A DNA stretch of 64,000 nt from an uncultured delta proteobacterium (GTDB lineage Bacteria; Desulfobacterota; Binatia; Binatales; Binataceae): assembly GCA_963724765.1 (NCBI GenBank), contig CAVRVY010000004.1, positions 448,001 through 512,000 on the forward strand, given 5' to 3'. Below are positions 1-50,198 of this stretch, in pieces. The position numbers were made by a program, and so were the translations under genes. Each line of letters starts with the position of its first letter. Position 1 is the stretch's first letter. Below the pieces are notes generated by a model, which did no database searches, was not told where the DNA came from, and saw nothing but the letters and a program-made list of their open reading frames with translations.

Positions 1-1
1 G

Positions 2-436
2 GAACGCGCGCGTGCGACCCTCCAGCGCAACCGCTCCGAGCTCGATCGGCGCACGCTCCTTGCGCAGATTGCTAACCATCACTCGGGCCGGAGCCTCGCC
101 AAGGGCGGCGCGTTCGAGGTCGTCGGGACGTCCGAGTCCCACCACGGCGTCAATCTCGGGCGCCGCGGCCAGCACGGCGGGATTCGCCTGCGCGAGGCAT
201 CCGGTCATCACCACGCGCGCGCGCGGGTTAAGCCGCCGTGCGCGGCGCGCGAGCTTGAGGCTCTCGGCGTCGGCCCGATCGGTCACCGTGCAGGTGTTCA
301 CGATATAGACATCGGCGACCTCGTCGAACTCGCAGCGTTCCATCCCGCGCGCGCCAAGGCGCGACTCGATCATCGCCGAGTCGTACTGGTTGACCTTGCA
401 TCCGAGTGTGGCCACCGCAAAGCGCATCGCACCCAT
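2..436 (-). CDS. mtaB: tRNA methylthiotransferase MtaB-like (MiaB family), N-terminal part; runs off the window edge
   Basis: Manual minus-strand translation from ATG at 436: MGAMRFAVATLGCKVNQYDS...ADVYIVNTCTVTDRAD...VVMTGCLAQ (UPF0004 domain Cys motifs); lies downstream of mnmA. Confidence 0.8.
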   Translation of the reverse strand, partial: MGAMRFAVATLGCKVNQYDSAMIESRLGARGMERCEFDEVADVYIVNTCTVTDRADAESLKLARRARRLNPRARVVMTGCLAQANPAVLAAAPEIDAVVGLGRPDDLERAALGEAPARVMVSNLRKERAPIELGAVALEGRTRAF

Positions 437-36113: not shown

Positions 36114-36632
36114 ATGGAACAACCCACAGGCGAATTGATTGAACGGATCACGCGGCTGGAGCATCAACAGGCCGAGCTTCGACACGCCAACCGGCGGCTG
36201 CGGCTGGTGACGGGTGCGCTAATGCTGTTGACGAGCGCGGTCGTCCTGATGGGCCAGACCGCGCTGACGGGTCAGACCGCGCCCGTACAAAGCCTGGAGG
36301 CCGAGCAGTTTGTGCTGCGCGGCAGCGACGGCAAAGTACGAGGTGCGATGGGTATCGGGGATAATGGCGCGGTGGGGATCAATCTGAACGATACCAAGGG
36401 CCAGACGCGGATCACGGTTGATATTGCCCCCAATGGATCACCCGGGTTCGACCTCTATGACGGGGACGGCAAGATGCGTGCGACGCTCGCGCTCGGGCCG
36501 AAGGGAACACCGGGCCTGGGGCTTTACGATCCAAGCGGCAAATTGCGCACCAGTCTCGATATTCCCGCCGCCGAAACTCCGGGCCTGGCCTTCTATCATC
36601 CAGACGGAAAGCCAGCCTGGGGTGCTCCATGA
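36114..36632 (+). CDS. Hypothetical membrane protein: coiled coil, TM, 22-aa beta repeats
   Basis: AAGGTG RBS; RITRLE coil; TM; repeated G.PG..LYD..GK.R..L units. Confidence 0.78.
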   Translation: MEQPTGELIERITRLEHQQAELRHANRRLRLVTGALMLLTSAVVLMGQTALTGQTAPVQSLEAEQFVLRGSDGKVRGAMGIGDNGAVGINLNDTKGQTRITVDIAPNGSPGFDLYDGDGKMRATLALGPKGTPGLGLYDPSGKLRTSLDIPAAETPGLAFYHPDGKPAWGAP

Positions 36633-36678: not shown

Positions 36679-36987
36679 GTGCTGCGCTTAATCCAAATCA
36701 TCCTGATACTGAGTTCGCTCTGTGGCCTGGGCGGATGCATAGGACCCGCCTACGGTCCTACTTACGGCTATCCTGAATACGGCTACTCGCCTTATTCCTA
36801 TGGCTTGCCGGTGTATGCCCGTGGCTACGCACCGAACTTTGCCGTGCACCATCCGTGGGAGGAGCATCATGCCTCCGGCCACAATGAGAGCTTCTTCCAT
36901 CCCGCAGCCGGTGGCGGGCATCCCGTCGGCCATGGCGGCGGCTATGGTGGGCATGCGGGCGGCGGTCCCGGAGGTGGGCACCGCTAA
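36679..36987 (+). CDS. Small Tyr/Gly/His-rich putative lipoprotein
   Basis: GGAGG RBS, GTG start, LGGC lipobox, YG repeats, His/Gly tail. Confidence 0.6.
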   Translation: MLRLIQIILILSSLCGLGGCIGPAYGPTYGYPEYGYSPYSYGLPVYARGYAPNFAVHHPWEEHHASGHNESFFHPAAGGGHPVGHGGGYGGHAGGGPGGGHR

Positions 36988-37076
36988 ACTTTCTTCGCCA
37001 ATGGCTCTCCTTGGACCGGAGAATCGTCACCTAACCGGACGACCGGCCCCGCGGCAGCGTGGCGTGGAGCAAACAA

Positions 37077-38081
37077 TCAACCGACGCGGAGCACGGCGGC
37101 GCCCTTGAGCTCGTCGTGCTTGAGCATGTTGAGCGCGCGGTTGGCCTCGTCCAGGCGCATCCCGAGCGTATGTGTGCGCACGGGAATTTCGCCTGCGATT
37201 TTCAGAAACTCCTCGCCGTCCGCACGCGTGTTGGCGGTCACGCTGCGCAACTCGCGTTCGTAGAAAAGATAACGCTCGTAGTCGAGCGCAGGCACCTGGC
37301 TCAGGTAGATTCCGGCGACCGCGAGGATGCCGCCGCGGTCGAGCGCCTCCAGCGCAGGCGGCACCAGTTCGCCGGCCGGAGCGAACAGGATCGCGGCGTC
37401 AAGCTTTTGCGGCGGCGGCGCGTCGGCCGGGCCGATCCAATCGGCGCCCAGCGCTTCAGCGAGTTCCTGATGGCGTCCGCCGCGGCTCATCACGAACACG
37501 CGGCATCGCCAATGCTTCAGCACCTGTATAGCGATATGCGCGGAGCCGCCGAAGCCATAAAGGCCGACGGTCGCGCCGGGCCGGACCTCGGCGCGCTTAA
37601 TCGCGCGAAAGCCGATTATTCCCGCGCACAAAAGCGGCGCGGCTGCCTCGTCACCGAGCCCGTCGGGGATCGCGTAGGCGAAATCCTCGCGCACGACCAC
37701 GAACTCGGCATAGCCGCCGTCGTGATCGTAACCGGTGAAGCGCGCGCCGGGGCAAAGATTTTCGCGTCCGCGCCGGCAATAAGCGCATTGGCCGCAGGTC
37801 TCGCGCAGCCACGCGACCCCGACGCGCGCTCCCGCGGCGGTAAAACGCGCGCATCCGGGGCCGCATCGCTCGACCGTGCCGACGATCTCATGGCCGGGGA
37901 CGATTCGCGGATGGCGCGCCGGCAGGTCACCCTCGGCGACGTGGAGGTCGGTGCGGCAGACGCCGCAGGTCTTGATGCGGACGAGGATTTCGCGCGGCCC
38001 GGGCTCGGGCTCGGGAAGCTCGATCGCGCGCAGCGGATCGGTTTCGATTGGGGCGGGCGTGTATACAGCCATCGCTTTCAT
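37077..38081 (-). CDS. Zinc-dependent alcohol dehydrogenase (AdhA-like)
   Basis: CGVCRTDLH, PGHEIVG, CGQCAYC..RENLC, PLLCAG, GLYGFG. Confidence 0.93.
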   Translation of the reverse strand: MKAMAVYTPAPIETDPLRAIELPEPEPGPREILVRIKTCGVCRTDLHVAEGDLPARHPRIVPGHEIVGTVERCGPGCARFTAAGARVGVAWLRETCGQCAYCRRGRENLCPGARFTGYDHDGGYAEFVVVREDFAYAIPDGLGDEAAAPLLCAGIIGFRAIKRAEVRPGATVGLYGFGGSAHIAIQVLKHWRCRVFVMSRGGRHQELAEALGADWIGPADAPPPQKLDAAILFAPAGELVPPALEALDRGGILAVAGIYLSQVPALDYERYLFYERELRSVTANTRADGEEFLKIAGEIPVRTHTLGMRLDEANRALNMLKHDELKGAAVLRVG

Positions 38082-38257
38082 TCTGTTAACATAGAAGTTT
38101 GGCTATTGTCCGCGGCGAAATCATCGCCTTCCTATCGCATGGCCGCTTCGAGTCCCAAACTACCATTCCAGCTCAAATTCTTGATACCTATGACGGGGCA
38201 CAAGAGCAGCGACGGTGGCGGTATGTTACGATAGCAGAGATCTTAATAGTTGCAGAG

Positions 38258-39031
38258 ATGGACATGACCCATACGCAAACACCAGAGACATGGCTCGCCC
38301 GAGGTTTCAGGCTTAGCCTGTTCCCTAGCGCGCCTATGTACGGAAAGCCTTCCTGGTGGGAGGAAATTGTAGGAAGACCCCCAGATTCAGAATCTTCCCA
38401 ACGCAGCCAGGGCTTGGTGCAACAGGCGGGAGTGTTTGAGGGCGGCCAGCTAGCCTTGATAACCCGACCGAGTAGGATCGATTGGACTTTCGGAGCGGTC
38501 GAGGGGGAACCTTCATCTGGAGATATCCCATCCCTGGGAGCATTCTCGAGCGTACTTGAACTGTTTACATCGCTCGCACATCGCTGGCTCAGCTCTTGCT
38601 CGTCTGCGACACGGCTAGCGTTCGGCGCTGACCTTGTTCAGCCGTCCGATTCTATAGCGGCAGCCTACTTGCGGCTCGGCTACTATCTGCAGTCGATCAA
38701 GATTGATCCTGAAAATTCGTCAGATTTTTTCTACAGGATCAACCGGCCTCGCCTATCTCGGTCAGGAATCAACGGGCTGAAGATAAACCGCTTATCCAGC
38801 TGGTCGGTTCTCCAAGCTAGGTTGCTCTCTTTTGAGGTGGCCGCCGTAGGCAGGCCTAAATCTTCGCACGTGTCTCTTGCTCCTTCAGCTCAGCCAGCGT
38901 GCCGCGTAGAACTAGACATTAACTCATCCGCGGACTTCGTGGGCGACCTTCCATCGGACACGCTGAACGTTCTCTTCTCTGAGCTGATAGAATTGGCAAA
39001 CGAGATCGCAACACAGGGAGATGTTCCATGA
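38258..39031 (+). CDS. Hypothetical protein, distantly TIGR04255-like
   Basis: ATG 38258 or 38264; RIDW, RLAFG, INRP, ELDINS motifs; lower GC; family call is from motif recall only. Confidence 0.65.
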   Translation: MDMTHTQTPETWLARGFRLSLFPSAPMYGKPSWWEEIVGRPPDSESSQRSQGLVQQAGVFEGGQLALITRPSRIDWTFGAVEGEPSSGDIPSLGAFSSVLELFTSLAHRWLSSCSSATRLAFGADLVQPSDSIAAAYLRLGYYLQSIKIDPENSSDFFYRINRPRLSRSGINGLKINRLSSWSVLQARLLSFEVAAVGRPKSSHVSLAPSAQPACRVELDINSSADFVGDLPSDTLNVLFSELIELANEIATQGDVP

Positions 39032-39771
39032 ATTCCTCCGCTGTCACTTCCATAGGAACCCAGCAACCAGTATCCGCCGGTGGGACAGCCGCGCAATCCC
39101 CAACGCAAAACGACTTTGAGCATTCAGTACTCGCAAAAATGTTTACAGCTTTGGCAGAAGCACGAATGGATCCCGAGAGGTTAGCAGTTGTCCTCGTCGA
39201 AGGCCTGAGAGTGAACCCTAGCCTTTGGAAGGATCTCGATCGCTATGCTCTACTGCTAAGAAGTTTTGTAAACGAGCTGCCTGCAGAGTACGGGTCTCCA
39301 CCTGCCCAGTCCTCTAGCGCTCCACTGCAGACGTTAGCTCCTGCTAAATGGGCTGACGCGCAAGAAGCGTTGCGCGATCTGATCGAGCGAGGTCGGGAGC
39401 AAACTTTTGAAGACGGGATTGAAACGCCCTTCTCGAGGACCTTGCAGACCCTCTTGTCGAAGCACGGAATTTGCGCGCTGCAATTGCTTGAGCAGTATTG
39501 CCTTTCCGAAGCAGGCAATGGTTGCATCATCGCTGAAGTACTTCGCCAGTTTGGGCTTAGCGAGCAGCCCGAGACTCAAGAAGCTCGGTTCAAGATTCTG
39601 GTCCTCTGTTTGGGTCATCCGTCTCTCGCCGTGCGCGACGCCGCTGCGATCGGGCTTGCGTATCTGAATGATGTTCGTGCGGTTCCGCATCTGCGACAGG
39701 CCGCGAGCCGAGAATGCTCCCCCGATCTGCGCCACGACCTACGGGAAGTCATTGCACAACTGGAGGCTTAG
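39028..39771 (+). CDS. HEAT-repeat domain protein
   Basis: ATGA overlap with upstream gene; LGHPSLAVRDAAAIGLAYLNDVRAVPHLRQA PBS-lyase-type HEAT repeat. Confidence 0.75.
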   Translation: MNSSAVTSIGTQQPVSAGGTAAQSPTQNDFEHSVLAKMFTALAEARMDPERLAVVLVEGLRVNPSLWKDLDRYALLLRSFVNELPAEYGSPPAQSSSAPLQTLAPAKWADAQEALRDLIERGREQTFEDGIETPFSRTLQTLLSKHGICALQLLEQYCLSEAGNGCIIAEVLRQFGLSEQPETQEARFKILVLCLGHPSLAVRDAAAIGLAYLNDVRAVPHLRQAASRECSPDLRHDLREVIAQLEA

Positions 39772-39775
39772 AGCC

Positions 39776-40303
39776 TTGCCCTTTCTGCTTCGGAAGGTAA
39801 GAAAGAGCAAATGGTATAGTCGTCCCGATCTTCCTTGGCTTTTGCCGGGCGAACTTCAGGCTGACACTCTATCCGATCTTGCGACCAAGGATAACGCCTT
39901 ATCCGTTTACCTGATCCAAGATGATCTGGCCAATCTGGAGCGAGTCATTGCGGCACTGGCTGCGAGCGGTTCGCATGTCTCTATCATAGATTACGCCCTG
40001 CTAAATAGTGACGTCGCGCGTCGGTTGGGCTTCGAGCTGATATCCACGCCAGGCACAACTCCTGACAGGACGGTGAATATAGAGCTTCATCTTGAGTTCG
40101 CACATCTAACCGCCGGCAAACTAGCCACGCTGGCCGAAGAGATCCGAAAAGGATCACGGATAGAGCGAGTGCTGGATAAGAGAACTACGGAACTAGTGGC
40201 TAAAAGCATCCGCAGCGGACATATCGAAGCAAGTGTCGTAAACGAAGATTTCTTGTTGAGTCTGCAGAAAAACTGCAAGAAGCATTCAATCGCGCTCAGC
40301 TAG
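39776..40303 (+). CDS. Hypothetical protein, possible ADP-ribosyltransferase/RES-like fold
   Basis: GGAGG RBS at 39762 and TTG 39776; LLRK..LSVY..PGTTP..N..H pattern; function is inference. Confidence 0.65.
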   Translation: MPFLLRKVRKSKWYSRPDLPWLLPGELQADTLSDLATKDNALSVYLIQDDLANLERVIAALAASGSHVSIIDYALLNSDVARRLGFELISTPGTTPDRTVNIELHLEFAHLTAGKLATLAEEIRKGSRIERVLDKRTTELVAKSIRSGHIEASVVNEDFLLSLQKNCKKHSIALS

Positions 40304-40360
40304 AATCTCACACACGCAAATAAAAAACGCCGCGCGCGATCAGACAGAAGGAGGCGCGCC

Positions 40361-40402
40361 AAGAAAAAACCTCACCCTCCCCGCAAATGACGCGGGCGAG
40401 GG
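40361..40402 (-). terminator. REP-like hairpin / probable intrinsic terminator after E2
   Basis: CCCTCCCCGC-N7-GCGGGCGAGGG stem, followed on the minus strand by TTTTTTCTT. Confidence 0.55.
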
Positions 40403-40429
40403 CATGAACAAATAGAGTCCAGAGAAAAC

Positions 40430-42055
40430 TTACAAGTCGAAGTCAGCTTCCTCGAGAATGCGCGCGGCGCGGAACAGAAAGCGGTTGCCGAGCACGCCGT
40501 CGATCACGCGATGGTCGTACGAGAGCGCCAGATACATCATCGTGCGGATCGCGATCGCGTCCTCGCCGTCGCCTTCGACCACCATCGGGCGTTTCTTGAT
40601 CTCGCCCATCCGCAGAATCCCGACCTGCGGCTGATTGATGATCGCGAAGCCGAACAGATTGCCCTCGCGCCCCGGATTGGTGAGCGTGAAGCTGCCGCCC
40701 GCGAGATCGTCGGCGGCGATTTTTTTCTCGGCGATCTTGCGCCGCAGCCGCTCGATCTCGCGCGCCAGTCCCACCACCGATATCCCCTCGGCAGCTTTGA
40801 TTACCGGCACCAGCAGCCCCTCCTCGGCATCCATCGCGATCCCGAGGTTTATCTGGTGGCGCACGATCAGCGAGTCGCCCACCACGGAGGCGTTCATGCG
40901 CGGAAACTCCTTGAGCGCGCGCACCGTCGCGGCCGCGGCCAGCGGCAGCAGGGTCAGCGCGAAGCCTTCCCGAGCGGCAAAGGCATCCTTGTGCTTATTG
41001 CGCAGGCGCATCACACGCGTCAGATCCACTTCGGCGAGCGTGCCGACATGCGGCGAGTGGGTCTTGGAGTAGACCAGGTGCTCGGCGATGAGCTTGCGCC
41101 GCCGGGTAAAGGGCTCGACCACGTCGCCCTCGCGCGGCTCATAAACCGGCGGCCGATAGCCGGTACCGCCCGGCAATCCAACCGATGGCGCGCTTGAGCG
41201 CGCGGAGGCCGATGGCGCGCTCGGGCGCGCGGCGGCCTGCGCCGACGGTGGAGCGGCCGTTGCCGCGGCCCGCGCCGGCTCCTGTCCATTCACAGCATTC
41301 GTCGCACCGTTTGCCGCGCCGCTCGCCGGCGGCTGCACCTGGCCCGCCTGGAGGGCGTCGAGATAAGCGAGCGCGTCCCGCTTGCTGACGCGGCCGCCCA
41401 TTCCGGTGCCCGGCACGCGAGTCAGGTCGATGCCGTGTTCTTCGGCGATACGTATCACCACCGGCGAGTAGCGCCGATGAGCGCCGACGCCACCGGCGGC
41501 CTGGCCGCCGGGCGCGGTCCGCGGCACCGCGGCGGCCGAGTCGGCCGCCGCAGCGGCTGCGCCGCTTGCACCGGCGGACGGCGTGCTCGCTCTGCCCGCC
41601 GAGGTCTGCGGTGCTGCGTTAGCGGCGGCCGCTTGCGGCCGCGGCTCACTGCGCACGGCGCGCAGCGTCGGCGGCTGCTGCGGGCGTGCCGCGGGCGGCG
41701 CACCCGCAGCAGCCGCCTTGCCCGGCGCGGGCGGGAGTGCGGAGGCAGCCTTAGGCTGCGTCCGCACTCCCGCCGGGGCGGCGGCGGCAGCCGGGGCGGC
41801 GAAAGTCGCGCCAGCGCCAGCGGCTTCGATTACCGCCAGCGGCGCGCCCACCGGCAAAGTCTGGCCCTCGGCCGCGATCAGTTTCGCGATCACGCCCGCG
41901 CCCGGCGAGGGAATTTCCGTATCGACCTTGTCGGTCGAAATTTCACACAGCGGCTGATCTTCCTGGACGCGGTCCCCCTCCTTGACCAGCCACTTGGTGA
42001 CGGTCCCTTCGACCACGCTCTCGCCCATCTGCGGCATCATTACTTCGATCGACAT
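40430..42055 (-). CDS. 2-oxoacid dehydrogenase E2 (dihydrolipoamide acyltransferase)
   Basis: Lipoyl domain STDKVD, long Ala/Pro linker, E3-binding GTGMGGRV, DHRVIDG catalytic motif. Confidence 0.94.
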   Translation of the reverse strand: MSIEVMMPQMGESVVEGTVTKWLVKEGDRVQEDQPLCEISTDKVDTEIPSPGAGVIAKLIAAEGQTLPVGAPLAVIEAAGAGATFAAPAAAAAPAGVRTQPKAASALPPAPGKAAAAGAPPAARPQQPPTLRAVRSEPRPQAAAANAAPQTSAGRASTPSAGASGAAAAAADSAAAVPRTAPGGQAAGGVGAHRRYSPVVIRIAEEHGIDLTRVPGTGMGGRVSKRDALAYLDALQAGQVQPPASGAANGATNAVNGQEPARAAATAAPPSAQAAARPSAPSASARSSAPSVGLPGGTGYRPPVYEPREGDVVEPFTRRRKLIAEHLVYSKTHSPHVGTLAEVDLTRVMRLRNKHKDAFAAREGFALTLLPLAAAATVRALKEFPRMNASVVGDSLIVRHQINLGIAMDAEEGLLVPVIKAAEGISVVGLAREIERLRRKIAEKKIAADDLAGGSFTLTNPGREGNLFGFAIINQPQVGILRMGEIKKRPMVVEGDGEDAIAIRTMMYLALSYDHRVIDGVLGNRFLFRAARILEEADFDL

Positions 42056-43100: not shown

Positions 43101-44162
43101 TCACGATCCGCGATGGTTGCCGCCGCCGGCGGTCGAGGAGCTGGCGGAAGATGAGCCGGACGGCGCGTAGAGGTCCTCGAGCGCCTCTTCGGGCTTGGGC
43201 ATCGGGCTCTGCTCGGCAAAATCGACCGCGCCCTGGACCACCGAACGGACGCGCTCGTCCACCTCTTCGCGGATGCGCTTTAAGTCGTGGCCCTTTTTCT
43301 CCAGGAAGAACTCGTAGCCCGGGATCGGGTCGCGGCTCTCCCATTCCACCAGCTCTTCCTTGTCGCGGTAGAGCGCCGGGTCGTGCTCGCTATGGCCGCG
43401 GTAGCGGTAGGTCTTGCACTCGATGAGCACGGGCCCGCCACCTTCGCGCGTGCGGTTCATCACGCGCTCGCTCAACTCGACCACGGCTAGCAGGTCGTTA
43501 CCTGAGACCACATGGCCCTTGAAACCATAGGCTGCGGCGCGCGAGGCCACGTCCTCGATCGCCATCTGCTTCTCCAGCGGGGTAGAGTAGGCGTAGCGGT
43601 TGTTTTCGCAGACAAAGACCACCGGCAGCTTGTGCACGCCGGCAAAGTTCATCGCCTCGTGCACGTCGCCGCGCGAGGCCGCGCCGTCGCCGAAAAACGA
43701 CACCGCGATATGCTTCTCCTTTTTGATGTGGTACTTGAGCGCCGCGCCGACCGCGACCGGCAGCGACGACCCCAGCATCGAGGTCGAACCGAAGACGGCG
43801 TGCTCGAGGTCGCCGCCGTGCAGAAATGAATCCTTGCCGCGCGAAAGCCCGGTTTCCTTGCCCATCAGTTGCGCCATCAGGCGTCCCGGATCGACGCCGC
43901 GCATCAGGAAGACCCCGAGGTCGCGATGGAGCGGCGCCACCAGGTCGCCGTCCTGCAGCGGCGCGCAGATGCCGGTGACGATCGCCTCCTGCCCGGCGCC
44001 CGAGTAGACGCCGCCGAGAATCTTGTTCTGCCGATGAAGCCGCGAGACGCGATCTTCAAAACCGCGGATGAGCTTCATCCAGTAGTAAAGTTGCAATTCA
44101 TATTCGACGCGGGTGGCGCCGCTTGTAGCGGGCGCGCTCGCGCCTTCGACCTCAGCCATCAT
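43101..44162 (-). CDS. 2-oxoacid dehydrogenase E1 alpha subunit
   Basis: GQEA, GDGA..N TPP motif, ENNRYAYST, YRYRGHSEHD. Confidence 0.93.
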   Translation of the reverse strand: MMAEVEGASAPATSGATRVEYELQLYYWMKLIRGFEDRVSRLHRQNKILGGVYSGAGQEAIVTGICAPLQDGDLVAPLHRDLGVFLMRGVDPGRLMAQLMGKETGLSRGKDSFLHGGDLEHAVFGSTSMLGSSLPVAVGAALKYHIKKEKHIAVSFFGDGAASRGDVHEAMNFAGVHKLPVVFVCENNRYAYSTPLEKQMAIEDVASRAAAYGFKGHVVSGNDLLAVVELSERVMNRTREGGGPVLIECKTYRYRGHSEHDPALYRDKEELVEWESRDPIPGYEFFLEKKGHDLKRIREEVDERVRSVVQGAVDFAEQSPMPKPEEALEDLYAPSGSSSASSSTAGGGNHRGS

Positions 44163-44414
44163 GCACCTCACCGGTCAGCATCAAACATCAACAGTATTGC
44201 AGCCCTGCGCGCTCGGCAAAAGCGCTCTTTTGGGGCTTACGACCGGTTTTGTCTCGCTTGCGACATAGGATTTTCCGCGATTGTTCCGGCGCCGGCGCGC
44301 CGGTATCGTCTCGCGGCAGGCGGGGCGGCTCGGCCTGACCTGTCACTACGCTATACACTGCGAGCCGAGGTTGGGAGGGGGACTGCGATAAGCCAACTTT
44401 CAGCAAGCGGCCCA

Positions 44415-47400
44415 TTGTCAGCCGGAGACGGTCAGCCTTCGGCGGCCAGGCGAAGGCTTTTCGTTTCAACCGCCCGCATCGTACTGCTTTCATTTATTTG
44501 CCTGGCCGTCGTGTCCGTAGCGGCCCGGCCTGATTCCGCGCCGCCGCCAACCCTCACCTTCTCGCCCCAGGGCACGATAAAGAACGTGCGCCAGGCCGTG
44601 GCGCACTTCTCGCAGCCGATGGTTCCGCTGGGCGATCCGCGCGTCCATCAATCGCCCTTTCAGATTGATTGCCCCGAGCATGGGAAGGCGCGGTGGCACG
44701 GAACGGAGCGCTGGATAGACAGCCGGCAGTGGTCCTACGACTTTGACCAGGACCTGCCGGCGGGCGTCCGATGCACCTTCACGCTCGTCCCCGGCCTCAA
44801 AACGCTCAAGGGTGCGCCGATTGCGAGCCATCCCCCATTCGTCTTCGACACCGGCGGCCCGGCCGTGATCGAGACCAGGCCGTGGACGGGCAGCAGCGAC
44901 ATCGACGAACATCAGGCCTTCGTCCTCGTCCTCGACGCCGAACCGGACGAGCAAACGGTGCTGGAGCACGCCGAGTTCTCCGTACAGGGGATGGCGCAGC
45001 GGGTCGGCGCGAACATCATCAGCGGCGCAGACCGCGACCTGTTGCTCAAGCGCTTCGACGATTTCATCAACCATCGCCCGGCGATCATCGTGCAGGCGCG
45101 GCAGGCGTTTCCCGACAACGCGGACGTAAAGCTGATCTGGGGCACGGGGATCGCGACTATCAGCGGAATCGCAACCGCGCAGGACCAGGAAATCAGCTTC
45201 AAGGTGCGCCCCGCGTTCGAGGCGCAATTCCGATGCGAGCGCGAGAATGCGCAGGCCGCGTGCATCCCGGTGACACCGATGTCGCTTTCGTTTTCGGCGG
45301 CGATATCAGCGCAAGCCGCTAAGCGGATCGCGATCGTCGGCCCCGGCGGAGCGCGCCGCACCGCGCAACTTCCTGACAGCGCGGACACCTCGGACATCCG
45401 CAACGTAACCTTTCCCGGCCCCTTCAACGAGTCCGCGCAATATACGATCGAGATCCCCGCCGGCCTCACCGACGACACCGGCCGCCCGCTCTCCAACGCC
45501 GCACGCTTTCCGATGGCGGTGAAGACCGACGCGTTTCCGCCGCTGGCGAAATTCTCCGCGCGCTTCGGAATTATCGAGGAGGCGGACCCGGTGCTGCCGG
45601 TCACCGTGCGCAATCTCGAGCCACTGCTCCACGGCGCGCGGCTCAAGGCCGGCGGGATGCCCTCGCCCACCGGCGCGCCGCTAAGCGATTTTCTGAGCCG
45701 AATCGACGCGCGGGTCTTCGGACTTTCAACCCCCGAGGCGCCGGAGGTACTTTCATGGCTCAGACGAGTCGCCGGCGCTTCGCGCCAGCGCTCGGTCTTC
45801 GCGGACGACAAGTCGGATGACACGTCGGGCGGCGCGCCGAAACGCTTCACGTTGCCCCGGCCCGACCGCGCCAAGGCGTTCGAGGTGCTCGGCATCCCGC
45901 TGGGCAAGCCGGGACTCTATATCGTGGAACTCAAAAGCGCGCGCCTGGGCAGCGTGCTGCTGGGCAAAAACGCGCCGATGTACGTTCCGACCGTGGCGCT
46001 CCTCACCAATCTCTCGGTCCACTTCGAGCAAGGCGCCGCCAATTCGCTGGTCTGGGTGACCACGCTCGAGGACGCGCGTCCGGTCGCCGGCGCGGCGGTG
46101 GCGATCGCCGATTGTCACGGCAAACGGCTTTGGGCCGGCACCACCGATCGTCAGGGGCTCGCGCTGGCGCCGAAGATCGACGCCGTGAGCAACCCTCCGA
46201 AGTGCGACGACCTTGCGCCGACCAAGTATGACTTCTACACCACCCAGACCCAGGCGCTGCAGGAGCTAGGGTCGGGGCTGCTGGTGACAGCGCGGCTCGG
46301 CGACGACTTCAGCTTCGTCCATTCGAGCTGGCGCTACGGCATCGAGTCGTGGCGCTTCCATCTGCCGCAGGAATGGAGCCCGAGTAATCTGGCCGCGCAC
46401 ACCGTTCTCGATCGGCCGCTGTTCCGAGCCGGCGAGACGGTCCACATGAAGCATTTCCTGCGCTCCAAGACTCTCGGGGGGTTCGCGATAGTCCCGCCGG
46501 CCGAGCGTCCGGCGACGCTGACGATCCGCGCCGTGGGCGGCGACCAGCACTATGATTTCCCGCTCAAGTGGAGCGCGGCTGGCATCGCCGAGACCACCTG
46601 GCCGATCCCCAAAGGCGCGCGTTTGGGCGAGTACTCGGTCACGATGGCGCTTAAGGTCGGTCCGGAGACGTATCCCACTGAGATCCAGACCGCGGATTTC
46701 CGGGTCGAGGAATTTCGCCTGCCTCTGATGAAGGCGGCGATTCGGATGCCGGCGCAAGTCCAGGTCGGGGTCACCAGCGTGCCGATCGATCTCAGCGCCG
46801 AGTACCTCTCGGGTGGAGCGGCGGCCGGATTGGCGGTCACGCTGCGCAGCCAGGTTCAGCCCAATGCGTCGATTTCGTTTCCCGACTTCGAGGATTTCAC
46901 TTTCGCCAATGGCGAGGTCAAGCAAGGAACCGTTACCAGCGAGCAATGGTACCAGGGTTTCCAAACCGTGACGCCACCCGGAGTCCATCAGCGTAAAGAC
47001 CTGACGCTCGACGCCGCTGGCGGCGCGCGTACCGTGATAACCGATATCGAGCGCTCGCCTACGCCGACCGACGTGCGCGCGGAGATGGAATACCACGACC
47101 CCAACGGCGAGACGCAGACCGTTTCCAACTCGGTCACGATTTGGCCCGCCAAATGGCTGGCTGGAATCCGCGCCGACGACTGGGTTTCCTCGCCCGGCCA
47201 CGTGCGTTTTCGCGTCGCAGTGGTCGCGGAGGGCGGCAAGCCGGTCGCCGACGCTCCGGTCAGCGTCGAAATTTTCAGCCGCAAGACGTTCTCGTATCGC
47301 AAGCGCCTGGTTGGCGGATTTTACGCCTACGACAACACGGTCGAGACGCGCCGCGCAGGCGAATTGTGCTCCGGCGTTACCGACCGGCGCGGACTGCTGC

Positions 47401-50198
47401 TGTGCGACGCGAAGACCTCGATCACCGGTTCGGTTGAGGTGCAGGCCACTGTGCGCGACAACACCGGCAACTCGAGCATGGCGTACACCGAAGTATTTAT
47501 CCCCGGCTCGGACCGCTTGTGGTTCGAGGGCCATGACGAGGATCGGATTGACCTGTTGCCCGAACATCCGCAATACCAGCCGGGCGACGTCGCGCGCTTC
47601 CAGGTGCGGATGCCTTTCGCTGAAGCCACTGCGCTGGTCGCCGTGGCACGCGAAGGAATTATCGCGGCCTCCGTGGTTCATCTCTCGGGCCATAACCCGG
47701 TCATCACCCTCCCCGTGCGCGACTACGCCCCCAACGTGTTCGTGTCGGTGCTGGCGATTCGCGGCCGTATCGGCGAGCCCCAGCCCACCGGCATGCTCGA
47801 CCTCGCCAAGCCGGCCTTCAGGCTGGGCATCGCGGAGATTCGCGTCGGATGGCGCGCAAATCGGCTGAACGTGACCGTCACGCCCGAGCATCGCGTCTAC
47901 CGCGTGCGCGAGAAGGCAAAGATCACGATCGCGGTCAGGACCGCCACGGGCGCGCCGCCGCCCAGAGGCAGCGAAGTCGCGGTGGCCGCGGTCGACCAGG
48001 GATTGCTCGAACTCGCCAACAACGATAGCTGGAAGCTGCTGGACGCGATGATGGGGCGGCGGCCCTACCAAGTGGAAACGTCGACCGCGCAGATGGAGGT
48101 CGTCGGCAAGCGGCACTACGGACTTAAGGCGCTGCCGCCGGGCGGCGGCGGCGGCCGGCGTATCACGCGCGAGCTATTCGACACACTGCTGCTGTGGAAA
48201 GCGACGGTGCCGCTGGATGCGGCCGGCAACGCGTCGGTTGAAGTCCCGCTCAATGATTCATTGACCAGCTTCCGTATCGTCGCGATCGCCAGTGGCGGTA
48301 TCAACCTGTTCGGCACCGGCGACACGCTGATTCAGTCAACGCAGGATCTGATGATCCTGCCGGGAGTCTCGCCGATAATCCGCGCCGGCGACTCGTTCGA
48401 CGCGGAGTTCACCGTGCGCAACGCCTCCGAGCAGGCTTTCACCGCGACTGTGAACGCGAAGATCGAAGGCGTCGCGGCCCAGCCCGCGCAGCAGGTACTC
48501 GAACTCGCGCCGGGCGAAGGAAAATCCATCGATTGGAAAGTTGCAGTGCCGGCGGGCGTGAACGAACTGCGCTATCGCGTCGATGCGACGTCCATCGCCG
48601 GCGGACCGTCGGACCATCTGAAGATAACGCAGCGCGTGCTGCCGGTGGTCCCGGTCAGGACCTACCAGGCGACGCTGATGCGATGGGAAAAGCCGATCGC
48701 CGAGCCGGTCGCGTTACCTGCCGACGCGCTCGCCGGCCAGGGCGACGTGCAGGTTGCGCTCAGCCCTTCGCTCACAGCCGGGCTCGAGGGAGTGCGCGAT
48801 TGGATGCGCGTGTATCCATATACATGCCTGGAGCAGCGCGTATCGCGCGCGGTTGCGCTAGGCGACCCGCTGACTTGGAACAGCATCGCCGCGGACCTGC
48901 CGCAATATCTCGACGGCGAGGGCCTACTGAAGTTTTTTCCCGAGATGCGCGACGGCAGCGACCTCCTGACCTCGTACGTCTTCTCGATCGCGCACGAAGC
49001 CGGGCTCACGATTCCGCCGCAGTCCGAGGAAGCGATGGAGCGCGGCCTGCGCGGCTTTATCGCGGGCACTGTGGTGCGCTACGGCGTCGTGCCGGGCGCC
49101 GACCTGCCGCTTAGGAAAATCGCTGCGATCGAGGCGCTCTCCAGCGCCGGCCAGGCCAACGCCGAGATGCTCGGTAGCATCATCATCGAGCCCAATTTGT
49201 GGCCCGACGCGACGGTTATCGAATGGTGGAACATCCTGCTCCGCATGCATGGCGTCTCCGACCGCGCGCGCCGGCTCGCCGAGGCCGAGCAGATCGTGCG
49301 CTCGCGGCTCAATTGGCAGGGCACCGCCGTGCACCTTTCGGGCGGCCACTGCTGGTGCCTGATGACCGACGCGGAGAGCAACCTGCTGCGTCTGGACCTG
49401 CTGCTGATCGACAATCATCTTTGGCATGACGACGTGCCGCGCGTAATGCAGGGCGCGGTGAGTATGCAGTCGCGGGGAGCGTGGCCGACCACGCTCGCCA
49501 ACGCATGGGGCACGCTGGCGGTTGAAAAATTCGCGCGCGCCTTCGAGTCGGTGCCGGTCAAGGGAACGACCGCGGTCTCGCTCGCGGCGGCCGCGCAACA
49601 GCTCGATTGGGCCCACGATCCCAGTGGCGGAAATCTGAGCCTGGCATGGCCCCCGGCGCGAGCCGATCTGCATATCGATCACAACGGCAGCGGAAATCCG
49701 TGGGTGCAGATTCGCGCGCGCGCGGCGATTGCGCTCAAGTCGCCGTTTAACAGCGGCTACCGGATCACCCGAACGCTCAGCGCGGTGGACACAAACCATA
49801 GTGGCGGATGGCGCCGCGGCGACATCGTACGCGTGCATCTCAAGATCGAAGCGCAGACCGACATGGCGTGGGTGGTCGTGAACGATCCGCTTCCGGCCGG
49901 CGCCTCGCATCTCGGCACCGGACTGCGGCGCGACTCTGCGATCGCGACCGCCGGTGAAAATATCGGCGCCGAAAATATCAACAACAATGACTATTACTTG
50001 CCCGACTTCGTCGAGCGGCCGTTCGATGCCTTCCGCGCCTACTATGAATACATCCCCAAGGGCACGTTCGAGGTCGAATACACGATTCGGCTCAACCAGG
50101 CCGGCGTCTTCCAACTCCCGCCGACGCGCGTGGAGGCGCTCTACGAGCCCGAGATGATGGGCGAACTGCCGAACGCGCCGTTCGACGTCGCGCCCTGA
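44415..50198 (+). CDS. Bacterial alpha-2-macroglobulin
   Basis: DRPLFRAGETVH, FRVEEF, AVDQGLL, YPYTCLEQ thioester motif, PTRVEALYEPE; start (TTG 44415) inferred from the signal peptide. Confidence 0.92.
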   Translation: MSAGDGQPSAARRRLFVSTARIVLLSFICLAVVSVAARPDSAPPPTLTFSPQGTIKNVRQAVAHFSQPMVPLGDPRVHQSPFQIDCPEHGKARWHGTERWIDSRQWSYDFDQDLPAGVRCTFTLVPGLKTLKGAPIASHPPFVFDTGGPAVIETRPWTGSSDIDEHQAFVLVLDAEPDEQTVLEHAEFSVQGMAQRVGANIISGADRDLLLKRFDDFINHRPAIIVQARQAFPDNADVKLIWGTGIATISGIATAQDQEISFKVRPAFEAQFRCERENAQAACIPVTPMSLSFSAAISAQAAKRIAIVGPGGARRTAQLPDSADTSDIRNVTFPGPFNESAQYTIEIPAGLTDDTGRPLSNAARFPMAVKTDAFPPLAKFSARFGIIEEADPVLPVTVRNLEPLLHGARLKAGGMPSPTGAPLSDFLSRIDARVFGLSTPEAPEVLSWLRRVAGASRQRSVFADDKSDDTSGGAPKRFTLPRPDRAKAFEVLGIPLGKPGLYIVELKSARLGSVLLGKNAPMYVPTVALLTNLSVHFEQGAANSLVWVTTLEDARPVAGAAVAIADCHGKRLWAGTTDRQGLALAPKIDAVSNPPKCDDLAPTKYDFYTTQTQALQELGSGLLVTARLGDDFSFVHSSWRYGIESWRFHLPQEWSPSNLAAHTVLDRPLFRAGETVHMKHFLRSKTLGGFAIVPPAERPATLTIRAVGGDQHYDFPLKWSAAGIAETTWPIPKGARLGEYSVTMALKVGPETYPTEIQTADFRVEEFRLPLMKAAIRMPAQVQVGVTSVPIDLSAEYLSGGAAAGLAVTLRSQVQPNASISFPDFEDFTFANGEVKQGTVTSEQWYQGFQTVTPPGVHQRKDLTLDAAGGARTVITDIERSPTPTDVRAEMEYHDPNGETQTVSNSVTIWPAKWLAGIRADDWVSSPGHVRFRVAVVAEGGKPVADAPVSVEIFSRKTFSYRKRLVGGFYAYDNTVETRRAGELCSGVTDRRGLLLCDAKTSITGSVEVQATVRDNTGNSSMAYTEVFIPGSDRLWFEGHDEDRIDLLPEHPQYQPGDVARFQVRMPFAEATALVAVAREGIIAASVVHLSGHNPVITLPVRDYAPNVFVSVLAIRGRIGEPQPTGMLDLAKPAFRLGIAEIRVGWRANRLNVTVTPEHRVYRVREKAKITIAVRTATGAPPPRGSEVAVAAVDQGLLELANNDSWKLLDAMMGRRPYQVETSTAQMEVVGKRHYGLKALPPGGGGGRRITRELFDTLLLWKATVPLDAAGNASVEVPLNDSLTSFRIVAIASGGINLFGTGDTLIQSTQDLMILPGVSPIIRAGDSFDAEFTVRNASEQAFTATVNAKIEGVAAQPAQQVLELAPGEGKSIDWKVAVPAGVNELRYRVDATSIAGGPSDHLKITQRVLPVVPVRTYQATLMRWEKPIAEPVALPADALAGQGDVQVALSPSLTAGLEGVRDWMRVYPYTCLEQRVSRAVALGDPLTWNSIAADLPQYLDGEGLLKFFPEMRDGSDLLTSYVFSIAHEAGLTIPPQSEEAMERGLRGFIAGTVVRYGVVPGADLPLRKIAAIEALSSAGQANAEMLGSIIIEPNLWPDATVIEWWNILLRMHGVSDRARRLAEAEQIVRSRLNWQGTAVHLSGGHCWCLMTDAESNLLRLDLLLIDNHLWHDDVPRVMQGAVSMQSRGAWPTTLANAWGTLAVEKFARAFESVPVKGTTAVSLAAAAQQLDWAHDPSGGNLSLAWPPARADLHIDHNGSGNPWVQIRARAAIALKSPFNSGYRITRTLSAVDTNHSGGWRRGDIVRVHLKIEAQTDMAWVVVNDPLPAGASHLGTGLRRDSAIATAGENIGAENINNNDYYLPDFVERPFDAFRAYYEYIPKGTFEVEYTIRLNQAGVFQLPPTRVEALYEPEMMGELPNAPFDVAP

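Follow-up and report, generated by a model that had tools for sequence, protein, structure and literature searches.

What does a cassette of three coupled genes do when it lies, in the opposite orientation, between two metabolic genes of a bacterium? This question is raised by a locus near position 38258 of a 64,000-nucleotide stretch of DNA, referred to herein as the window, from an uncultured delta proteobacterium of the family Binataceae (contig CAVRVY010000004.1 of assembly GCA_963724765.1). The original prediction, read from the sequence and its open reading frames (ORFs), had proposed that ORF1, a HEAT-repeat ORF2 and an ORF3 with a layout reminiscent of ADP-ribosyltransferase (ART) toxins form an undescribed toxin-antitoxin-chaperone (TAC) or anti-phage system. 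We give roughly an even chance to the reading that the cassette is a horizontally acquired three-part toxin-antitoxin (TA) module, in which gene 3 (ORF3) provides an ART-fold toxin, gene 2 (ORF2) a HEAT-repeat antitoxin and gene 1 (ORF1) a generic accessory hub. What is established here is how the genes are ordered and coupled, that they recur together and that modules are swapped, along with the predicted folds, the conserved residues, the origin of the cassette outside its host and the site at which it is inserted.

The ORF list and the Pfam matches of the flanking genes confirmed that three plus-strand ORFs sit between two minus-strand metabolic genes, encoding a zinc alcohol dehydrogenase (PF08240, PF00107) and a 2-oxoacid dehydrogenase E2 (PF00198, PF00364), the latter followed by the genes for E1 beta and then E1 alpha. 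The lower GC content ascribed to the cassette was likewise found, with a GC fraction of 0.52-0.563 across 38000-40399 in 400-nt windows versus 0.652-0.695 in the flanks (0.657-0.695 over 37000-37999; 0.652-0.67 over 40600-41199). The tight coupling could be read directly from the sequence, in which genes 1 and 2 overlap by an ATGA at 39028-39031 and a GGAGG inside gene 2 serves the TTG at 39776. As all ORF3 homologues begin at the residue encoded by TTG 39776, this codon is the confirmed start of gene 3. The reading frame of ORF1 in its longest form opens at an upstream TTG, 38099, and ends at 39031; the ORF1 homologues start near 38258-38264, not at TTG 38099.

Comparison with related genomes revealed that the cassette is foreign in origin, a horizontally acquired insert. 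In genome G001 the similarity to the window ends at 38081 and resumes at 40430-40437, which are exactly the two gene ends, and the dehydrogenase start and the E2 stop are only 149 bp apart. The same intergenic gap of genome G013 (L082:2600-3193) carries a ParE toxin (PF05016, E = 1.5e-13) and a Phd/YefM antitoxin (PF02604, E = 8e-12). Since this gap holds a second, different TA pair, the site has taken up a TA module at least twice, and it looks like a recurrent landing place for such modules. G005 and G014 have a rearranged neighbourhood. When 41 related genomes were searched with a gene 1 family profile, the ORF1 family turned up in the window's own (G000) alone; the 16 further members of the genus lacked it, and the ORF3 family was present in 4 of 401 genomes of the phylum. 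Together with the TA pair at the G013 site, these counts suggest that the cassette behaves as a mobile TA module. As the original prediction had stated, no integrase adjoining the cassette is present in the ORF list of the window; no tRNA was found in the window, and no att-like direct repeats were found flanking the insert.

Three genomes of the phylum besides the window's carry an ORF3 relative in a two-gene pair. In G031 (L122:1018-2010) such a pair, composed of a 158-aa HEAT-like protein that lacks the long N-terminal part and an ORF3 relative, lies between the genes for an N6_N4 DNA methylase and a type III Res helicase, and is a guest module within a type III restriction operon.

One genome per species was scanned using an alignment of gene 1 relatives as the query, which yielded 76 loci, and all ORFs of these loci were then searched with hidden Markov models (HMMs). 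Genes 1, 2 and 3 followed one another in this order in 45 of the 76 loci (44, plus L062 after one HMM iteration), with stop and start codons mostly overlapping in the complete loci. Four loci contained genes 1 and 2 only, two of them ending at a contig edge, and in the remaining 27 gene 1 was followed by other genes. The 76 loci span Chloroflexota, Nitrospirota, cyanobacteria, Acidobacteriota, several proteobacterial classes, Binatia, Spirochaetia and Ignavibacteriales, and one is archaeal (Nitrosopumilaceae). An independent scan of metagenome contigs for gene 3 returned 73 loci, of which 44 were informative in that gene 2 was complete and at least 800 nt of upstream sequence was available; a gene 1 relative lay directly upstream in 32 of these 44. 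Since dozens of unrelated genomes carry these three families in identical order, the arrangement is not due to chance, and the expectation that the triplet would be conserved elsewhere was borne out by both scans. The proposal of a three-gene unit held as regards this order; the core unit is instead the gene 2-gene 3 pair, which is also found without gene 1.

The 12 informative gene 3-centred loci that lack a gene 1 relative comprise one with a TIGR04255-type gene, three with an unrelated gene of approximately 200 aa and eight with unrelated neighbours. The three ~200-aa genes (L133:2257-2871, L135:2244-2870 and L136:2270-2860) occupy the usual place of gene 1 before the HEAT and ORF3 genes, two of them have a weak C-terminal helix-turn-helix (HTH) match, and in L133 and L135 their stop overlaps the start of gene 2; they are possible alternative first components. 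No fourth conserved gene was found among the 82 nearest neighbours of the complete loci. Seventy of these neighbours are mostly unrelated housekeeping genes, and the other 12 belong to mobile elements, restriction systems, TA modules or phages (IS200 and DDE transposases, CopG, BrnT, a nucleotidyltransferase, a methylase-HNH, Vsr, DpnII, GmrSD_N, two capsid genes and a terminase).

The 27 gene 1 loci without ORF2 or ORF3 relatives provided insight into the function of the third position, as gene 1 is mostly still followed by two coupled genes. The third gene encodes a PIN domain in four loci (L010, L015, L031 and L042; one BLAST cluster), with Pfam PIN matches to L010 and L031 at E = 2.6e-4 to 4.2e-4, just under the gathering score. 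It encodes a HEPN domain in five (L011, L047, L052, L058 and L074; one BLAST cluster), with L047 above the gathering score and L058 and L074 weaker, and a RES domain in L027 (37 bits, above the gathering score). The remaining third genes are seven small proteins grouped by eye and several singletons. Judged by the sequence matches of its PIN, HEPN and RES occupants, the third slot is a toxin slot. The second genes cluster along with the third genes and not among themselves. When the type of third gene was mapped onto a tree of 72 gene 1 proteins (5 of the 76 loci with a gene 1 ORF shorter than 200 aa were left out, and 5 cut or unclear rows were left unlabelled), at least 15 changes were required, the possible minimum being 5 and the mean of shuffled labels 21.2. 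Loci L034, of the ORF3 type, and L043, of another type, are sisters in this tree with a Shimodaira-Hasegawa-like approximate likelihood ratio test (SH-aLRT) support of 100, and their gene 1 products are 63% identical over their full length. Their gene 2 products have no similarity, N-terminus included. Since gene 1 is alike in these two loci and gene 2 is unrelated, genes 2 and 3 have been exchanged as a unit behind gene 1.

Two further observations concern these loci. The sister loci L031 and L038 of Acidithiobacillus have near-identical genes 1 and 2, with a PIN gene in L031 and no intact PIN ORF at that place in L038, where the toxin gene may have decayed. The seven third genes grouped by eye (L043, L044, L054, L055, L059, L064 and L068) encode small proteins without a Pfam family that have an Arg on the first hydrophobic stretch, a 'GxSV/LS' stretch and an 'NPxH' motif, and the second genes beside them end in a beta-rich 'DGxLxLEW'-like domain. 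Two of these seven cluster by BLAST. They were considered as ORF3 homologues, and this homology is unsupported (hhalign E = 0.27).

We next consider what gene 3 of the window encodes. No Pfam (E ≤ 1) or NCBIfam model matched ORF3, PADLOC-DB v2.0.0 returned a single chance-level row (E = 0.084), and the ORF3 family profile had no match among PDB sequences at E ≤ 10. The RES domain (PF08808) was rejected as an assignment: it did not match ORF3 at E ≤ 1 or any of 49 ORF3 relatives at E ≤ 0.1, and these relatives share no common Pfam family. An HMM search of 1.84 billion representative proteins identified 3354 ORF3 clusters (50% identity) at E ≤ 1e-3, 890 of them at E ≤ 1e-30, and the best 150 clusters are all stand-alone proteins of 160-218 aa. 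The AlphaFold2 model of ORF3 (predicted local distance difference test (pLDDT) score of 79.4) is an alpha/beta domain with strands at residues 3-8, 41-47, 71-77, 87-90, 105-109 and 128-132. Foldseek against the PDB gave no match at E ≤ 0.001, with Tpt1 first appearing at rank 29. An exhaustive VIA structure search yielded a strikingly uniform list, in which the closest structural neighbours are Tpt1/KptA 2'-phosphotransferases and further rows include Tse2, CopC, TreX, Xre-RES, ParT, NarE, pertussis toxin, SidE, LT, MbcT, Tne2, Scabin, NatT and diphtheria toxin, among others. Judging in part by their titles, we take about 40 of the 50 VIA rows to be proteins of the ADP-ribosyltransferase superfamily. 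These models are consistent with gene 3 having a putative fold of this superfamily, most like the NAD+-binding domain of Tpt1/KptA and DarT.

The conserved residues of the family, placed by strand order, may fit such a fold. Transferases of the R-S-E type present an Arg, a Ser and an acidic residue in that strand order, the ART triad (R-S-E or H-Y-E) lying on strands 1, 2 and 5. Among 53 aligned ORF3 sequences the conserved polar residues are R6 (49), S43 (52), D72 (46), N101 (49), H105 (52), D/E107 (47) and R131 (45), W13 is conserved as well, and position 107 is a Glu in the window protein. In the model R6 lies on the first strand (3-8), S43 on the second (41-47) and H105-x-E107 on the fifth (105-109). 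The alignment thus bore out the strand-1 Arg and the later Ser strand on which the ART-like layout had been proposed.

Gene 2 could be assigned with greater confidence. The window ORF2 itself matches HEAT_2 at E = 4e-5 (24.3 bits), under the Pfam cut-off of 27.7, and matches no PADLOC-DB v2.0.0 family. A word-index search recovered nothing except ORF2 itself, as it had recovered just 7 ORF3 proteins; since HMM searches showed both families to be large, these low counts reflect a limit of that search. Using phmmer on the fetched loci, 48 ORF2 relatives were obtained, rising to 51 after iteration. In an alignment of 44 sequences the N-termini differ greatly from one another in both length and make-up, and approximately 135 aa at the C-terminal end form a conserved block. 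The family profile matches alphaRep and natural HEAT-repeat domain chains at E = 8e-28 to 2.6e-7, and two relatives, in L053 and L140, score above the Pfam HEAT cut-off. By these sequence comparisons the C-terminal part of gene 2 consists of genuine HEAT repeats, as had been recognised from a single repeat in the window. The family is acidic, with a median isoelectric point (pI) of 4.95. HEAT-repeat immunity proteins (Imm-HEAT) are known from polymorphic toxin systems, as described in passages of PMC3482391.

Gene 1 belongs to a family without a name. A word-index search found 177 ORF1 homologues, all annotated as 'hypothetical' and lacking a Pfam domain. ORF1 matched no Pfam or NCBIfam family at E ≤ 1, SecB included, and no PADLOC-DB v2.0.0 family; none of 38 relatives matched NCBIfam, the ORF1 profile returned chance rows only among PDB sequences, and the nearest Atlas clusters of an ORF1 homologue are unnamed. 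The AlphaFold2 model (pLDDT 91.2, predicted template modelling score 0.88) consists of two repeats of strand-helix-four strands-helix, a duplicated beta-alpha-beta4-alpha arrangement that corresponds to the topology of TATA-binding protein (TBP). Consistent with this topology, Foldseek placed TBP chains first (E = 6e-4 to 1e-2), followed by EspG chaperones and AdoMetDC, and a viral structure library gave an unnamed viral protein (E = 1e-6) together with viral TBP/TFIID and VETF rows. On the strength of its model, gene 1 has a TBP-like, double-barrel fold. It is not the SecB-like fold that had been named as one option for ORF1, for which there was also no family match. The ORF1 family is acidic (median pI 5.24), its conserved motifs (RLAFG, INRPR, INRLSKWS, ELDIN and, at the C-terminus, EIAxxGD) map largely to strands and the last helix, and R161, R163 and R176 are invariant.

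The motifs of ORF1 had led the original prediction to call it TIGR04255-like, after an uncharacterised NCBIfam family of sporadic distribution. As a claim of membership this was rejected, as ORF1 did not match the NCBIfam model (cut-off 30 bits) at E ≤ 1, the model matched 0 of 38 ORF1 relatives at E ≤ 0.1, and a scan of the window genome gave 0 candidates. As a pointer to operon position it proved a good lead. Across 301 genomes of the phylum the TIGR04255 model identified genes in 29, and 24 of these genes were recovered (L077-L118). Two coupled genes follow 17 of them, and a single one follows a further six within short flanks; the last gene encodes PIN in four cases, with scores over the gathering threshold, DUF7689 in three, HEPN in one and a HicA-like protein in one (weak). 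Since TIGR04255 genes are followed by two coupled genes with a toxin-like last member, TIGR04255 seems to mark three-gene toxin operons generally. The ORF1 family and TIGR04255 thus share an operon context that we defined ourselves and that is not a curated criterion, namely a first gene followed by two coupled variable genes, the last toxin-like. In both, the first gene encodes a protein of approximately 250 aa and the operon ends in PIN, HEPN or another toxin-like gene. One metagenome locus, L140, joins the two families, in that a TIGR04255-type gene (E = 2e-27 versus an HMM of our own 24 sequences) precedes the same module of a HEAT gene and an ORF3 relative. We conclude that both families would serve one purpose in operons of one type. 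At the sequence level their likeness is weak: hhalign of the ORF1 family against the 24 TIGR04255 sequences gave a local P of 0.0075 over 203 co-linear columns with a probability of 5%, and nothing in global mode, and against 4 TIGR04255 sequences it gave E = 0.03 over 46 columns. The weak alignment pairs the first strands, the RLAFG strand, the ELDIN strand and the last helix, and the families may be distant relatives.

As these data suggested a TA module, we considered how its parts might work. Gene 3 would be a small toxin with Arg6, Ser43 and His105-x-Glu107 as its likely catalytic set, and would use NAD+ for the modification of a nucleic acid or protein, or else deplete it. Gene 2 would be the cognate neutraliser, with its C-terminal HEAT domain binding and masking the toxin and its variable, low-complexity N-terminal stretch making it labile. 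Gene 1 would be a generic hub, an acidic protein of TBP-like fold in the TIGR04255-like class, that serves many unrelated toxin/antitoxin pairs. Because nucleases, NAD-consuming toxins and ART-fold toxins would all be served, such a hub cannot act on toxin chemistry; because these chemistries differ, it must act on something that the operons share, such as antitoxin stability or folding, operon expression or the sensing of a common trigger. Gene 1 may stabilise or gate the antitoxin, and it possibly senses a trigger, for example phage infection, in the manner of the SecB-like chaperone of TAC. By analogy, TAC offers a precedent for a hub that acts on antitoxin folding or trigger sensing: the abstracts of PMC11618068 and bioRxiv 10.1101/2024.02.24.581848 describe the SecB-like chaperone as binding the ChAD element of the antitoxin, as being titrated by phage structural proteins and as recombinable with another TA warhead. 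The toxicity, the NAD+ chemistry, the choice of binding partners and the hub role are what we infer for the cassette; the coupled genes, the co-variation of genes 2 and 3, the sporadic distribution and the TA pair at the G013 site make up the context in which we read genes 2 and 3, most economically, as a type II-like TA pair. Predictions of a three-chain complex with ORF1 as the scored partner gave a score of 0.00 in both runs, which were made without controls, and speak neither for nor against binding. An extension of this scheme, which we regard as tentative and rather doubtful, is that TIGR04255-like proteins, comprising the ORF1 family and TIGR04255, are a widespread class of universal TA hub with a TBP fold, each stabilising or gating the antitoxin of the two-gene warhead behind it and sensing infection, a second, SecB-independent immunity of the TAC type, and that ORF3 represents a new nucleic-acid-modifying ART clade near Tpt1/DarT. 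The warheads in that case would be PIN, HEPN, RES, HicA-like, DUF7689 and the ART-fold ORF3 family.

Several observations weigh against the three-part TA module. R6, S43 and E107 were placed in the ART triad by strand order, not by superposition. In 11 of the 44 informative loci the gene 2-gene 3 pair is accompanied by no ORF1 gene and no TIGR04255 gene and, since the pair exists without gene 1, the hub is dispensable in some contexts. No conserved motif was found in the N-termini of gene 2, even between sister loci, and because these N-termini have no motif in common, no ChAD-like element is seen in gene 2. The length of gene 2 is an observation in favour of the module: in loci with gene 1 the median is 217 aa (range 165-291, n = 32, with 18 over 213 aa), and in loci without it 198 aa (range 163-213, n = 11, with none over 213 aa; L140 left out), at a one-sided Mann-Whitney p of 0.005. 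As this test ignores relatedness and the ranges overlap, a link between the N-terminal extension and the hub is no more than a hint.

Some of the same facts could be explained if gene 1 were a separate transcriptional autoregulator of the TA pair, omega- or PaaR-like, with the concave sheet of its TBP-like fold binding the operator. Since an autoregulator binds the operator, the service of one protein to any toxin pair would then be accounted for. Gene 1 is the first gene of the operon, its TBP-like fold carries conserved Arg and Asn residues on strands (INRPR, INRLS; the three invariant arginines), and no DNA-binding domain can be recognised in gene 2 proteins of any type. The genes of ~200 aa that stand in the place of gene 1 at L133, L135 and L136 include the two with a weak HTH match. 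According to passages of PMC8832971, there are known TA operons of three genes in which the regulator is separate. The acidic pI of gene 1 is at odds with operator binding, and we consider an autoregulator unlikely, though a rival to be taken seriously. The cassette might instead be an abortive-infection defence in which gene 1 acts as a direct phage sensor or activator that releases or switches on the effector of the module behind it, with no housekeeping role in antitoxin folding. A modular build from one constant component and many effectors would suit such a system, as would the relatives within or beside restriction genes (the Mod-Res type III operon of G031; GmrSD_N, DpnII and methylase-HNH), and the conserved TAC component is described as sensing phage structural proteins in the abstracts of PMC11618068 and bioRxiv 10.1101/2024.02.24.581848. 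The cassette has no PADLOC match, however, and 70 of the 82 neighbours are housekeeping genes rather than defence islands, which makes a dedicated defence system quite improbable.

A further reading is that the product of ORF3 is not a toxin at all. Its closest structural neighbours, the Tpt1/KptA 2'-phosphotransferases, and a sequence reading in which the window ORF3 has neither a signal peptide nor another toxin delivery feature would also suit a benign Tpt1-type enzyme that processes RNA or DNA ends in an NAD+- or nucleotide-dependent manner, the operon being a small repair or regulatory unit. PIN, HEPN and RES toxin domains fill the same slot in homologous operons, however, the distribution of the cassette is sporadic and horizontally transferred, and gene 3 is tightly coupled to a partner that co-varies with it. 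Moreover, as the structural alignment covers chain residues 90-185 only, ORF3 lacks the N-terminal RNA-binding domain of Tpt1. We therefore hold a benign enzyme to be highly improbable, and a TA module with gene 3 as its toxin remains the reading that we prefer.

To our knowledge, the SecB-like chaperones have so far been the sole accessory family linked to three-part TA systems with a chaperone. Judged by the portions of the TAC literature cited above, the cassette resembles TAC systems (HigBAC, CmdTAC) in having three small coupled genes and one constant accessory protein for different warheads, and in being modular and horizontally mobile; CmdT is, in addition, an ADP-ribosyltransferase toxin, as the putative ART fold of ORF3 would suggest for gene 3. 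In contrast to TAC, the fold of the accessory protein is here duplicated and TBP-like, the protein has no SecB match (Pfam and NCBIfam, E ≤ 1), and its gene comes first rather than last. The antitoxin candidate is a HEAT-repeat protein with no visible ChAD-like conserved element, its variable extension is N-terminal and not C-terminal and tends to reach a greater length in loci with gene 1, and ORF3 has no PADLOC match. Other ART-fold TA systems, including DarT/DarTG, ParT/ParST, the RES toxins (Xre-RES, MbcT/MbcA, VPA0770) and NatT, differ in that ORF3 matches no Pfam RES, DarT or ART family and has no solved relative by profile. The partner in these two-gene systems is a macrodomain, Xre or ParS, whereas here it consists of HEAT repeats and there is a third gene. 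The context of ORF3 is a mobile toxin module, unlike the RNA repair or splicing context of Tpt1/KptA.

With omega-epsilon-zeta and paaR-paaA-parE the cassette shares a first gene that is separate from the neutraliser. With Panacea/PanA, as described in passages of PMC8832971 and PMC10440598, it shares one constant component that occurs with many toxin types; in the same passages PanA can be an accessory domain while a separate domain neutralises. Unlike omega, PaaR and PanA, gene 1 is acidic and lacks a recognisable DNA-binding domain, and unlike PanA it is a separate protein rather than an antitoxin domain and is unrelated to DUF4065/PanA (no Pfam match). That no named system matches the cassette agreed with our searches of Pfam, NCBIfam, PADLOC and the literature. 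No paper on TIGR04255 or on DUF7689 was found, and searches for a three-gene TA system with an ART and a HEAT repeat, and of the broader TA/ART literature, subscription papers lying outside their scope, retrieved no description of the operon. The main texts of the HEPN survey (PMC3710099), Panacea (PMC8832971) and NetFlax (PMC10440598) contain no passage on such a triplet, and their supplementary cluster lists may name the families otherwise. What appears to be new, from the sequence comparisons and models, is the accessory family and the putative ART-fold toxin family; the proposed three-part TA module is of a known kind.

The features of the cassette are summarised in Table 1. In the presumed promoter region a weak 12-nt inverted repeat (38091-38102 / 38155-38166) and two copies of the 8-nt direct repeat GCAGAGAT ahead of the gene 1 start were observed; a scan found no sigma-70-like site and no promoter or terminator consensus.

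Table 1. Coordinates of the cassette and its parts (window positions; residue numbers for the parts of ORF2).
Feature	Position	Strand	Remarks
Inserted segment, ~2.35 kb	38082..40429		fills the gap between alcohol dehydrogenase start and E2 stop
Upstream non-coding leader, presumed promoter region	38082..38257	+	putative
Gene 1 (ORF1)	38258..39031	+	257 aa from internal ATG 38258; start possibly 38264
Gene 2 (ORF2)	39028..39771	+	247 aa; stop TAG 39769-39771
ORF2 N-terminal part	residues ~1-105		variable, low-complexity
ORF2 C-terminal domain	residues ~106-247		conserved PBS-type HEAT repeats
Ribosome-binding site GGAGG for gene 3	39762..39766	+	inside the end of gene 2, 9 nt 5' of TTG 39776; read from sequence
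Gene 3 (ORF3)	39776..40303	+	175 aa, TTG start; open frame from 39668

Other parts of the window also merit description. Upstream of the dehydrogenase gene, positions 36114-36632 (+) encode a protein of 172 aa without a Pfam family that has one predicted hydrophobic segment and repeated 'G..G..R..LD' units, and positions 36679-36987 (+) encode a 102-aa Gly/Tyr/His-rich protein with a lipoprotein-like N-terminus. Within the E2 gene, 41200-41800 (-) reaches a GC fraction of 0.77-0.79 and encodes a long Ala/Pro/Gly-rich linker from the lipoyl to the E3-binding domain; this stretch also yields long spurious ORFs on the opposite strand. A very large ORF at 43869-50198 (+), 2109 aa from its first TTG, encodes a bacterial alpha-2-macroglobulin with bMG3, MG2, A2M_BRD, A2M and bMG10 domains.

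The cassette points to a second accessory family, unrelated to the SecB-like chaperones, that follows the same modular logic across many bacterial phyla and at least one archaeon and is linked to TIGR04255. The analysis further delimits a large family, as yet unnamed, of small proteins with a putative ART fold (the 3354 clusters noted above) together with its HEAT-repeat partner, and all three proteins are small and soluble-looking. If the proposed module is correct, it would bring a new toxin chemistry, a new sensor or adaptor fold and an annotation for thousands of genes that are now 'hypothetical'.

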